In this document: positions 1 through 14,320 of the stretch, one piece after another
Numbering within the stretch: position 1 is the first letter of the stretch
Layout of the letters: each line of letters starts with the position of its first letter
Virus record (IMG/VR): IMGVR_UViG_3300023171_000011
Coordinates: 1 to 64,000 of that record
Strand: one strand, 5' to 3'
DNA from: a virus
DNA length: 64,000 nucleotides
Notes under the pieces: generated by a model
The model's input: the letters and a program-made list of their open reading frames with translations, nothing else
What the model was told of the DNA's origin: nothing
Database searches by the model: none
Translations under genes and position numbers: made by a program

Positions 1-246
1 TTTTTCTGCACCCCTGTCTCCGTCGTTAATATGAGTTAAATCGGGATCGTTATCTTTTTTAAGTTCCCTAAAAATTGTAGATAATGATCTGGCTTCGTCA
101 GTTTCTTCCCTACCTGCGTAAGCACCACAATGACCGAATGCACAACAGTGACCATTATCGTCATTATAAACGCCCGTACCCCATTTATCTTCTGGAATAT
201 TATTGAACTTGTCAATATAATAATCCAATGTGTATTTAGTTTCCAT
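1..246 (-). CDS. hypothetical phage protein (partial, runs off window start)
   Basis: ATG at 246 reads METKYTLDYFIDKFNNIPEDKW..., open to position 1; not in ORF track. Confidence 0.6.
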   Translation of the reverse strand, partial: METKYTLDYYIDKFNNIPEDKWGTGVYNDDNGHCCAFGHCGAYAGREETDEARSLSTIFRELKKDNDPDLTHINDGDRGAEK

Positions 247-332
247 TTCTTTGCTATTATAAGCCCTTCTCAGGCATTTTAATTGTTTTGTTGATTAATT
301 ACTTGTCTTTGGTTTTTGTGCTCGTACACAGG

Positions 333-518: not shown

Positions 519-763
519 AACGGTATGCTTGTTATTAGTTTGCTCAATGAAGCTAATGTTGTCTTTGGCTTATCCTGTTTAGTGTTGTCAAATGGATTAC
601 ATTCTCCTTGGTCTTCAAGAAATTCAAGCACATCTTGAAAATCATGTAATTTAGGGCCATTCCAATTATGTAGGATTAAATCTACTAAGTGAGCACGATA
701 TTTATCGGCATTGTCAATGATAATGTTTGCTATTATCAATTGATTTTTGTTGTTGTTAGTCAT
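515..763 (-). CDS. hypothetical protein
   Basis: Tightly packed early cluster, A-rich leader. Confidence 0.6.
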   Translation of the reverse strand: MTNNNKNQLIIANIIIDNADKYRAHLVDLILHNWNGPKLHDFQDVLEFLEDQGECNPFDNTKQDKPKTTLASLSKLITSIPL

Positions 764-1036: not shown

Positions 1037-1198
1037 GGTATGTTGTTTTGTTCTGTGACTGTTTTTAAGCCGATCTAATAAAGCGGAGGAGATCATCCGA
1101 CCGAGTGCCTCCGCTATCTAAATTAACGCTCTCAACGCCCTATATCCGCCCCGTAAATTAATACAGTCAGCGGATTAGGGTTTCAACTTGCGATTGAA

Positions 1199-5291: not shown

Positions 5292-5381
5292 GATTGTAAG
5301 TTTTGAATATTATTATGAGTAATGATTAATAAAACAACGAACAAAACGAATGCTGTTAATAAGACGAGGTTAAACCGTTTG

Positions 5382-5582
5382 CTAGTCATGGTTAGTTGAT
5401 TTTATATTATTGTTTAAAGTTTCGAATAAGGCTTCCCGTATGTTTTCTTCACTTGCATGCTGATTGTAAGCTAAGCTAATTGCACTAGCGATAACATTAA
5501 AATCATCTTGAAGCTGACCCTCATCACCATACAATATTTGAGATATAATCTGTTCTTTGGTTGTTAATTCGTAGTTTTTCAT
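5382..5582 (-). CDS. hypothetical protein, first gene of the early operon
   Basis: ATG about 20 nt downstream of the twister ribozyme. Confidence 0.6.
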   Translation of the reverse strand: MKNYELTTKEQIISQILYGDEGQLQDDFNVIASAISLAYNQHASEENIREALFETLNNNIKSTNHD

Positions 5583-5602
5583 AATGATTTAAGTTTACAA
5601 TT

Positions 5603-5666
5603 TAAGCTACTCTCTATTTATACTGGCTTGTAACAGTTCACCACAATGGTAAGCTAGATTGGCTTA
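5603..5666 (-). ncRNA. type-P1 twister self-cleaving ribozyme
   Basis: Minus strand UAAGC-CAA-UCUA-GC-[UUACCA UUG UGGUGA]-ACUG-UUACAAGC-CAGU-AUAAA-UAGA-GAG-UA-GCUUA gives P1, L1, P2, P3, P4, L4 and both pseudoknots (UAC/GUA, GC/GC). Confidence 0.9.
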
Positions 5667-5906
5667 TATAATGCACATTTAGACTGTCGGAATGCATTTC
5701 CTTATCGGGTATTAATACCGCCCGTTGCGGAATGACCTTTATACAGTTGCCTATCTGTTTTGTTGAATCAAATATCAATCTAATAACAACACCAACCAAA
5801 TAAAAGACACGACTTTTTTAATTTCGCGTATAAATACCTGTAAGTGATTTAGGACACTTTTATGCTCACATACGTGTTATGTTAAATAAAGCCGTATATT
5901 AGCAAA

Positions 5907-6410
5907 ATGGAAGATTTAATATTATATAAAGAAAAGCTAGATAAAAAGTCTATTTTAAATGAAAATACGAAATGTATTGAATGGACTGGCAGCAAAAGAA
6001 GAGGTTACGGAGCATTAAATTTTAGAGGCAAAAACAACTTTGCTCATAGAGTATCTTATATCGTTCATAAAGGAGAAATCCCAACAGGACTATTTATTTG
6101 TCATACTTGCGATAATAAAATTTGCGTGAACCCTGAACACTTATATGCTGGAACACCAAAACAAAACATGGAGGATAAAATGGAACGAGGCAGATTCTTT
6201 AACGGTCACTCCGCTAAAACACATTGCACTAATGGTCACGAATACACAGAAGAAAATACCCATTGGAGAAAGTCTGGTTCTAAAACATCAACACCATGGA
6301 GAGCGTGCAAAATATGCGCAGCAGAAAGAGGCAAGAAATGGAGAGATACACATGAGTATGTTAGACCAATTAAATCATGGTATATCAAAAAGAAAGATAG
6401 ACCACAATAG
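5907..6410 (+). CDS. HNH endonuclease (HNH_3 type) with C-terminal Zn-binding domain
   Basis: CIEWTG...GYG...AHRVSY...ICHTCDNKICVNPEHL...N; THCTNGHEY...CKIC. Confidence 0.9.
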   Translation: MEDLILYKEKLDKKSILNENTKCIEWTGSKRRGYGALNFRGKNNFAHRVSYIVHKGEIPTGLFICHTCDNKICVNPEHLYAGTPKQNMEDKMERGRFFNGHSAKTHCTNGHEYTEENTHWRKSGSKTSTPWRACKICAAERGKKWRDTHEYVRPIKSWYIKKKDRPQ

Positions 6411-6420
6411 CACTTAACGC

Positions 6421-7260
6421 ATTTTAACCCCAAATCAAACAAGTATAAATCAACCCAAATAACAACAATAACTATACTATTAAAAAAAATCGAGCACTAA
6501 CTCACATAGAAAGAACAGAACCCCTCTATCAGCGATTCCTTAGTGAACAAAACCACATTATAACTATAACACACCATATAACCCACACAACACACCAAAA
6601 CAATAACCAATACATTATACGTAACAAAACCAAACAATACAACCAAAACAACTTGTATATACAACCACCTAAATAACCAAACTTGTATACACAACTTAAT
6701 ACATGTCAAGCAAGTTTACATAAAAGAGATTCGGTAAGAGAGGATAACCCTCATCTCATTCCCTTGAATACGTGTTGTTTGCTGTTTAAACGGTGTTTCT
6801 TTGGTGTTAGGTTGATTGCTTGTTAGGTAGCCTTTAATGTATGTTCATTTGTCTAGTTAAACTTGTCTCCATACGGTGGGCGTAGTGTATTCACGATACT
6901 TTAAATGCCGTTTTGCTACGAGGTCACACCATGAGTTGTAAGGCAGTTTAACTGTGTGCCTTGACTACTAGACTATATTAATGAGATAACTCCTTATAAG
7001 CTATGTAATCGCTTCACTTGACAGGCAGCAGCACACATCACTATAACTAAGCGTCAGTACACACCAACCCATCAAACCAAACTGAACTACATTGCATTTA
7101 CTTTAGAACGACAAGCAAGGCACAGCACCCAACACAAACCAATATCATTTGGCAAATCAAGCCACCCCCATCAAAAGCAAACGATTCTCTTTGACCAGGG
7201 CACAGGCTTATTCGGGAGGGGTAATCCTGCTTCCAAGTGTGTGTAAAATTTTTTTATAAT
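6421..7260. other. strand-biased low-complexity non-coding region near the transcription divergence point
   Basis: Alternating A/C-rich and G/T-rich tracts; repeat AACTTGTATA(T/C)ACAAC at 6650 and 6680. Confidence 0.6.
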
Positions 7261-7373
7261 TTTTATTGGTGTAAAGGTTTCTGTAAGCTCATTGGATTCT
7301 AAGGGAAGCTAAAAAATGATAAATTGGGTTTAAATAGTATGTGCGCAATAGTTGATAATATTTTAGAAAAGTT

Positions 7374-7415
7374 GACCATCAGGGTGATGATTACGTGATA
7401 ACCGCCCTGATGGTT
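7374..7415. repeat. inverted repeat upstream of RepL-like gene
   Basis: GACCATCAGGGTG ... CGCCCTGATGGTT. Confidence 0.7.
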
Positions 7416-7506
7416 ACGGAAATTAGTTTTATTATTATTGGTAATATTAAAAATAAGCGTATCTTCGTTTTATAAAATGATTAACAATAACGGAATATTG
7501 ATTATT

Positions 7507-13705: not shown

Positions 13706-13776
13706 AAGGGTTTACGATAATGGTAGTCTACGGGTCTCCAAAACCTAGAGTAATGGTTCGAATCCATTAACCTTTG
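13706..13776 (+). tRNA. tRNA-Trp(CCA)
   Basis: Cloverleaf; loop CT-CCA-AA; T arm AATGG TTCGAAT CCATT. Confidence 0.8.
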
Positions 13777-13781
13777 CAAAT

Positions 13782-13855
13782 AGTGCAATATATCAATTGG
13801 TTAGATTACCGCATTTGGGATGCGGAGGTTCCGAGTTCGAGTCTCGGTTGCGCTA
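13782..13855 (+). tRNA. tRNA-Pro(TGG)
   Basis: AGTGCAA/TTGCGCT acceptor; CCGCA-TTTGGGA-TGCGG. Confidence 0.85.
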
Positions 13856-13926
13856 CGTAGTAGGAAGAGCGGTTCGAGTCCGCAGGATCTTTGATCTGAT
13901 AGTGTATCTGGCTAGCACACCTGCGT
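13856..13926 (+). ncRNA. circularly permuted tRNA-like element (YrlA/Y-RNA-like)
   Basis: Order: GTAGG, T arm, loop-closed acceptor hairpin GGATC-TTT-GATCT, D arm, CCTGC. Confidence 0.6.
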
Positions 13927-13931
13927 TATTT

Positions 13932-14003
13932 TACTGCCTAGTGTAATGGTAAGCACAACAGACTTTGATTCTGTTAGTCGGAGTTCGAATCTCTGGGTGG
14001 TAA
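13932..14003 (+). tRNA. tRNA-Gln(TTG)
   Basis: TACTGCC/GGTGGTA; ACAGA-CTTTGAT-TCTGT. Confidence 0.85.
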
Positions 14004-14004
14004 C

Positions 14005-14077
14005 GGTGATTCTGTCCGTAATGTAACGGAGCCGGTCTGTGAAATCGGTTATCAGGGTTCAAGTCCCTGGTTTCACA
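14005..14077 (+). tRNA. tRNA-His(GTG)
   Basis: CCGGT-CTGTGAA-ATCGG; encoded G-1; mismatches in acceptor stem. Confidence 0.75.
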
Positions 14078-14083
14078 CTAAAT

Positions 14084-14155
14084 ATTTCTGTACGTCAACG
14101 GATAGACTACGAAGCTACGAACTTCGGAATAAGGTTTCGAATCCTTTCAGAAATA
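14084..14155 (+). tRNA. tRNA-Arg(ACG)
   Basis: ATTTCTG/CAGAAAT; CGAAG-CTACGAA-CTTCG. Confidence 0.8.
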
Positions 14156-14160
14156 CAAAT

Positions 14161-14240
14161 GCCCTGCTGACTTATGCAAACTGGTACAGCTACAAGTCTT
14201 AGAAACTTGGTTTTTCTCGGTTCGAGTCCGAGGTGGGGTA
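14161..14240 (+). tRNA. tRNA-Leu(TAG), short variable loop
   Basis: GCCCTGC/GTGGGGT; CAAGT-CTTAGAA-ACTTG; enlarged D region. Confidence 0.75.
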
Positions 14241-14246
14241 CTAAAT

Positions 14247-14320
14247 ATGCTGTTAGCTCAGTCGGTTAGAGCGCCACTCTTATAAGGTGGAAGTCAAAGG
14301 TTCAAATCCTTTACGGCATA
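14247..14320 (+). tRNA. tRNA-Ile(TAT)
   Basis: ATGCTGT/ACGGCAT; CCACT-CTTATAA-GGTGG; canonical D arm. Confidence 0.85.

Follow-up and report, generated by a model that had tools for sequence, protein, structure and literature searches.

The locus and its phage

Does the minus strand at positions 5666-5603 encode a self-cleaving RNA, and if it does, what use would a phage have for one directly ahead of a run of small genes? The window, by which we mean the whole 64,000-nucleotide stretch analyzed here, consists of positions 1 to 64,000 of a 74,858-bp IMG/VR record judged complete. The element sits in a divergent gap, and past it 17 packed small minus-strand open reading frames (ORFs), mostly family-less, run from 5582 down to 36. 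The initial annotation had described it as a type-P1 twister ribozyme in the 5' leader of an early operon. The twister class was reportedly first described by Roth et al. in 2014. Ever since that description twisters have been known to occur near phage genes, and the window element taken alone is an ordinary instance of that. The type-P1 class (RF03160) is reviewed in PMC6765202 and PMC5408937, and the role of bacterial and phage twisters is described as still unknown (PMC6765202).

The phage is probably an uncultured podophage that infects Bacteroidota, and the probable source of its DNA is a leaf-litter metagenome. It is remote from any cultured phage, its terminase sharing 25-28% identity with the terminases of Flavobacterium, Cellulophaga, Tenacibaculum, and Maribacter podophages. 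A Bacteroidota host is suggested because a scarcity of Shine-Dalgarno-like motifs, present at 7 of 72 gene starts, and A-rich leaders both fit such a host.

Identity of the element

The Rfam twister-P1 model RF03160 aligns to minus 5666-5603 with a score of 46.0 bits over model positions 1-68, which is the full length, at E = 5.4 × 10−7 when the whole window is searched against all 4227 families and 2.5 × 10−9 for the local stretch. The assignment to twister-P1 made in the initial annotation thus has a full-length match behind it, but one under the curated gathering score of 67.2, and Rfam run at the gathering threshold returns tRNAs only. A second covariance model, R1, was built from 56 other viral twisters with the window sequence left out; it scores the element at 59.6 bits, E of about 3 × 10−14 by a rough calibration, and in a search of the 64-kb window finds it as the sole match at E ≤ 10. 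The 74.9-kb genome has one twister only. In the RF03160 alignment there are zero non-standard pairs, the nested P1, P2, and P4 with the optional P3 are present in the P1-open permutation, and the unpaired upper-case consensus bases AA, GC, CAAGC, UAAA, and GAG are all retained, the sole exception being the base ahead of the cut, N-1.

Homology under these models argues that the element is a genuine type-P1 twister, as do two lines of evidence given below, covariation in a set of 57 viral members and the persistence of the element in two related phages. Together they show that it belongs to the fold family and that its fold is under selection. At the nucleotide level, positions 5300-6000 of the window had no match in the phage database, and an exact 27-nt search of viral contigs with the ribozyme 3' half found no relatives. 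A Pistol match overlapping that 3' half, at 13 bits and E = 5.2, was taken as chance.

Anatomy

Read 5666 to 5603, the minus strand is UAAGC-C/AA-UCUA-GC-UUACC-AUUGU-GGUGA-ACUG-UUACAAGC-CAGU-AUAAA-UAGA-GAG-UA-GCUUA, with the slash at the predicted cut. Coordinates of the parts are collected in Table 1. The order is the one found in RF03160, namely P1, a UAA-type cut, P2, GC, P3, P4 with a CAAGC loop, UAAA, P2', GAG, and P1', and the Rfam alignment together with the sequence places P1, P2, P3, P4, L4, and GAG where the initial annotation had drawn them. Both pseudoknots that it named can also form, and the adenine after the cut and the GAG guanine are at the expected places. Core bases that match the upper-case consensus are A5660, A5659, C5630-C5626, U5620-A5617, and G5612-G5610.

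Table 1. Features of the twister locus (window coordinates; elements of the ribozyme are given as RNA)
Feature	Positions	Strand	Remarks
Complete type-P1 twister ribozyme, 64 nt with 5-bp P1	5603..5666	-	RF03160 and subclass model R1
P1 5' strand UAAGC	5662..5666	-	Pairs with GCUUA 5607-5603; predicted to stay on the released upstream fragment
Predicted scissile step C5661/A5660, then A5659	5660..5661	-	Aligned to model positions 5-6, consensus U-A
A5660	5660	-	Counterpart of the general-acid adenine
P2 5' strand UCUA	5655..5658	-	Pairs with UAGA 5616-5613; identical P2 in L080
GC, 5' half of pseudoknot T2	5653..5654	-	Complementary to L4 G5627 and C5626
Optional P3 hairpin UUACC-AUUGU-GGUGA	5638..5652	-	UUACC 5652-5648 with GGUGA 5642-5638, loop AUUGU
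P4 ACUG/CAGU closing L4	5622..5637	-	ACUG 5637-5634 with CAGU 5625-5622
L4 UUACAAGC	5626..5633	-	RF03160 alignment
L4 bases U and A, 5' half of pseudoknot T1	5631..5632	-	U5632-A5608, A5631-U5609
AUAAA	5617..5621	-	RF03160 alignment
P2 3' strand UAGA	5613..5616	-	RF03160 alignment
GAG 5612-5610, then UA as 3' half of T1	5608..5612	-	G5612 is the counterpart of the general-base guanine
P1 3' strand GCUUA	5603..5607	-	RF03160 alignment and fold of the isolated 64 nt
A/U-rich spacer of 20 nt, ribozyme to start codon	5583..5602	-	ATG 5582
First ORF past the ribozyme, 66 aa, no family	5382..5582	-	Heads the 17-ORF array
Candidate Bacteroidota-type promoter: TTTG 5800-5797, 20 nt, GATATTTG 5776-5769	5769..5800	-	One mismatch to TAnnTTTG (-7 box)
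Divergent HNH endonuclease gene (context only)	5907..6410	+	PF13392, 1 × 10−9; phrog_826, 1.6 × 10−36

The covariance model does not score pseudoknots T1 and T2. T2 can form as G5627-C5653 and C5626-G5654. T1 has departed from the consensus on both sides, CC with GG there having become UA with UA in the window, so that the L4 of the window, UUACAAGC against the consensus UCCCAAGC, is compensated by its partners after GAG. The other differences from RF03160 are the lower score, 46 against 67.2 bits, the A/U-rich helices, and the C at N-1. The cut predicted in the initial annotation, C5661/A5660 with C in place of the usual U, aligns with the U-A step of the RF03160 consensus, and the 20-nt gap from the last P1 base to ATG 5582 is likewise as given there. 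C at N-1 is rare, with 3 of the 57 aligned members having it. Elsewhere, L031 and L086 likewise have C there and L025, L028, L042, and L058 have A, and published assays found broad tolerance of imperfections at −1 (PMC11662667). A U at this position is not essential, given these six other natural members and the published assays.

Folding of the isolated 64 nt to minimum free energy recovers P1, P3, and P4 at −10.9 kcal/mol, with z = −0.15, so the stability is no greater than that of shuffles. When a 150-nt context is folded, the minimum-free-energy structure joins the P1 5' strand (5662-5666) to a nearer, second GCUUA at 5654-5650, and pairs CAU-U-GUGGU at 5648-5640, comprising the P3 loop and 3' strand, with AUCAU-U-AUG at 5588-5580 in the start-codon region. 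These predicted pairings could be a competing fold that ties ribozyme folding to access to the start codon, or they could be chance or noise. Such competing folds, the A/U-rich P1 and P2, the sub-threshold Rfam score, and the C at N-1 are what one would cite for a decayed or chance look-alike that has lost cleavage, a reading that we find scarcely credible. Two models reach E = 5.4 × 10−7 and about 3 × 10−14, all core bases and both pseudoknots are intact, two diverged relatives show compensating changes, and in a large published assay about 94% of natural candidates proved active in vitro (PMC11662667).

A phage subclass below the Rfam cut-off

To put the window element among its kind, IMG/VR was searched with a pattern describing the 3' half only, G-UUNCAAGC-C-NG-NN-UAAA-NNNN-GAG, which gave 91 matches in 86 viral contigs. 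A matching 5' half, consisting of AA, a perfectly complementary 4-nt P2 strand, and GC, lies upstream in 85 of the 91. The variable base of L4 tracks the base after GAG, as UUA with GAG-UA, UUC with GAG-GA, and UUG with GAG-CA. For covariation we used an alignment of 57 distinct viral sequences with the window element included; its selection filter required P2 and T2, which therefore add no support, and P1, P3, P4, and T1 lie outside the filter.

Standard pairs fill 96.2% of cells in this alignment and 70.2% in shuffles. Its covariation score of 0.569 compares with 0.153 in shuffles and is reached by none of 500 of them, and slid controls with the partners moved by 1-3 columns are at most 44% paired. 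P1, P3, P4, and T1 all covary, including all four modelled P1 pairs and the P4 pairs 44-59 and 46-57. The second T1 pair takes three Watson-Crick types across the class (GC in 22, CG in 21, AU in 13, with 1 unpaired). The GC that forms the 5' half of T2 is invariant in 57 of 57 members, partly fixed by the selection filter, and T2 adds no covariation because its positions are invariant and were required by the filter. P3 is present in about half of the subclass, with covarying pairs.

All 17 of 17 other members of the subclass that were scored against RF03160 obtain 46-61 bits, under 67.2. Hence the cut-off excludes the whole subclass and not the window element alone, and an abundant phage subclass outside the Rfam twister-P1 cut-off means that routine annotation keeps missing such ribozymes.

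The window element shares with this UUNCAAGC/GAGN'A subclass of twister-P1 the loop, the T1 register, an optional P3 closed by U-A, and a start codon that follows within a few tens of bases. Among 61 distinct viral twisters the usual placement is intergenic and co-oriented with the neighbours, with an upstream stop codon 10-40 nt ahead and the next ATG at a median of about 35 nt; an ATG lies 9-41 nt past the ribozyme in 29 of the 56 distinct viral twisters that have a downstream same-strand ORF. Most members thus lie between co-directional genes, 10-40 nt after a stop, whereas the window element heads an array and has a divergent HNH endonuclease as its nearest upstream gene.

Some contigs carry more than one twister. 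Divergent or overlapping pairs on opposite strands are found at L025:290-364(-) with 528-600(+), L031:914-987(-) with 1061-1133(+), and L042:252-353(+) with 207-295(-), and three twisters follow one another within 1 kb at L063:919-969, 1211-1265, and 1891-1942. The members of the pairs are A/U-rich, with a long P3 and a base other than U before the cut, and are the ones most like the window ribozyme. At L009:2742-2805 (+) there is a type II hammerhead match, at 34.7 of 37 bits, about 30 nt upstream of a same-strand twister; co-location of these two ribozyme classes is known.

Two related phages

Two related phages, both IMG/VR contigs, are informative: G001, with a terminase 62% identical to that of the window phage, and G002, which shares three replication-side proteins with it at 24-36% identity. 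A single twister is present in each, at 55.8 and 56.4 bits. It is encoded on the opposite strand from the shared replication-side genes, and a series of small ORFs comes immediately after it, with the ATG 48 nt past the ribozyme in G001 and 21 nt in G002. Comparison of the three ribozymes shows compensating changes in P1, P2, P4, and T1; G001 lacks the P3 that the window element and G002 have. DNA flanking the window twister does not align to that of either relative, and the flank ORFs of the three phages, compared over about 1.5-3.9 kb upstream and 1.9-5.6 kb downstream, have no protein similarity at E < 1 × 10−3; the first two neighboring proteins of the window (66 aa and 133 aa) have no relatives among viral contigs. 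Within the stretches compared, the alignments indicate that the ribozyme fold is the one conserved element of a fast-changing region. Three diverged relatives that each keep one ribozyme at the head of a small-gene run testify clearly to selection on the fold.

The placement in the initial annotation, the 5' leader of an early operon, is supported in part. The window ribozyme does head the small-gene array, but the twisters of G001 and G002 follow a same-strand gene and a leader of about 240-370 nt, and so are not at the start of a transcription unit. Because of this, "leader or inter-cistronic processing site" is a safer description than "start of operon." The label "early" for the array is a reading of the gene layout.

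Directly upstream of the twister, G001 and G002 share about 55 nt of almost identical DNA, including the wobble positions of a possible small ORF. A leader block GGAGCGA..UCUAAAAAA..AUGCCUAUGGUAGUGUCAACUAUCUU is conserved at L062:6740-7000 and L003:1263-1500, once per genome, and a joint fold of the two sequences predicts a long-range helix ACACAUNCCA/UGGUAGUGU around three hairpins, with changes that compensate each other. The single copy per genome rules the upstream block out as a repeated phage promoter, and a wider search for it gave one unrelated coding-region match only. Going by the predicted fold, the block in these two phages may be an RNA missing from the catalogues, with its 3' end produced by the twister.

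From that, one could propose that the ribozyme chiefly serves to form the 3' terminus of the RNA ahead of it, freeing the leader as a separate non-coding RNA that ends in a cyclic phosphate, and that any effect on the downstream message is secondary. The near-identical single-copy block with its predicted multi-stem fold and the long leaders of the two relatives speak for this, but the joint fold comes from two sequences only, the window has no counterpart of the block, its own leader of about 100-240 nt folds no better than shuffles (z = −0.14), and the spacing of most class twisters, 10-40 nt past an upstream stop, leaves no room for a separate RNA. As the main job, this is distinctly unlikely.

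The DNA similarity between G001 and G002 ends at the 3' end of P1. That end point, and a twister that is the only conserved element found amid unalignable DNA in three phages, next to small ORFs with no detectable homology, would fit a ribozyme that is a fixed joint for cassette exchange between phages, that is, a recombination or module boundary, or else a selfish passenger, with cleavage of little value for expression. A 50-60-nt patch with differing helices offers little identical sequence for homologous exchange, however, compensating changes in four helices and T1 indicate selection on the RNA fold and not on the DNA sequence, and the downstream comparison spans 1.9-5.6 kb only. We regard either version, joint or passenger, as very improbable.

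The HNH gene next to the window ribozyme raises a related question of mobility. By tblastn it has no match at E < 1 × 10−5 to the ORFs of the fetched G001 and G002 loci, and for that reason it is probably a recent mobile insertion. HNH gene and ribozyme as one mobile unit, or HNH inside the ribozyme, are ruled out, since the gene is 240 nt away on the opposite strand and the fetched relative loci keep the ribozyme with no HNH match.

Proposed action

The explanation that we favor, and hold to be quite probable, is that the element is a genuine type-P1 twister serving as a processing site that uncouples the small-gene message from the RNA upstream of it; minus-strand transcription, cleavage of the window sequence, and a benefit to the message are what we infer in saying so. 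The leftward transcript would fold as P1-P2-(P3)-P4 with T1 and T2, and would cut itself between C5661 and A5660. By the established chemistry of the class, the products of a twister are a 2',3'-cyclic phosphate upstream and a 5'-OH downstream. The upstream leader would leave with the cyclic phosphate, carrying only five P1 bases of the ribozyme, and because the cut is at the 5' edge of the fold, the small-gene message would begin with its 5'-OH and keep nearly the whole compact ribozyme at its 5' end. Twenty unstructured A/U-rich bases would then separate the retained fold from the AUG, and a defined, structured 5' end without a triphosphate would fix both the stability of the message and a translation start independent of Shine-Dalgarno pairing. 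The initial annotation had raised an altered stability or sensing of the mRNA as a possible consequence. In some bacteria a 5'-OH end marks RNA for decay and not for protection (glmS, RNase J1, Bacillus), and the effect on the message may therefore go either way.

Several known systems bear comparison. RiboJ, an engineered ribozyme insulator upstream of a coding region, is a synthetic construct. The glmS ribozyme is likewise in a 5' leader and its cleavage leaves a 5'-OH on the message (PMC6765202), but its fold is unrelated, it depends on a metabolite cofactor, and it reduces expression, and nothing in the window element suggests a ligand. For bacterial twisters close to phage genes, a role in processing polycistronic messages has been suggested (PMC6765202). 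Ribozymes in the 5' UTRs of fungal and plant RNA viruses (PMC13725137) are also small self-cleaving ribozymes just upstream of a coding region, so that the translated RNA takes its 5' end from the cut; these are RNA viruses of eukaryotes, in contrast to the DNA phage of the window, and ribozyme-dependent translation is shown only for fungal RNA viruses (PMC13725137) and not for any DNA phage twister.

A stronger version of the processing-site explanation can also be formulated. There, in non-Shine-Dalgarno, Bacteroidota-type phages, the single twister would stay fixed at the head of an array of small takeover genes that itself changes fast, with cleavage required for expression, since it would remove the triphosphate leader and leave a cap-like 5' fold about 20-40 nt from the AUG. 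We think this unlikely as it stands. If true, it would be a DNA-phage counterpart of the ribozyme-dependent translation start recently reported in fungal RNA viruses. The recurrent 20-40-nt spacing to the start codon offers a concrete, testable handle on the purpose of bacterial and phage twisters.

A scan for sigma-70-type promoters and terminators found nothing on the minus strand, with counts no higher than in shuffles, and exact TAnnTTTG is absent from the minus strand between the ribozyme and 8972, its window-wide count being not above chance. The TTTG...GATATTTG arrangement of Table 1 is the best candidate promoter, judged by a consensus that belongs to Bacteroidota, the putative host group, and it would give a leader of about 100 nt. 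Repeated 11-mers taken from the intergenic region recur elsewhere in the window as scattered single matches only.

Other features of the region

Window 6411-7437, which separates the HNH gene from the first plus-strand gene, is about 1 kb with no convincing ORFs and is CA-rich on the plus strand. It contains several families of direct repeats 15-26 nt long, two AACTTGTATA(T/C)ACAAC boxes spaced by 30 nt at 6650-6695, and a 20-nt palindrome at 7375-7414. The region coincides with the cumulative GC-skew minimum and is likely a replication origin or control region. At the matching place G002 has three AAGATAGCCACACTATCC iterons (L062:5505-5655). Farther along the plus strand of the window, at 13706-14320, is a cluster of six Rfam-scored tRNA genes.
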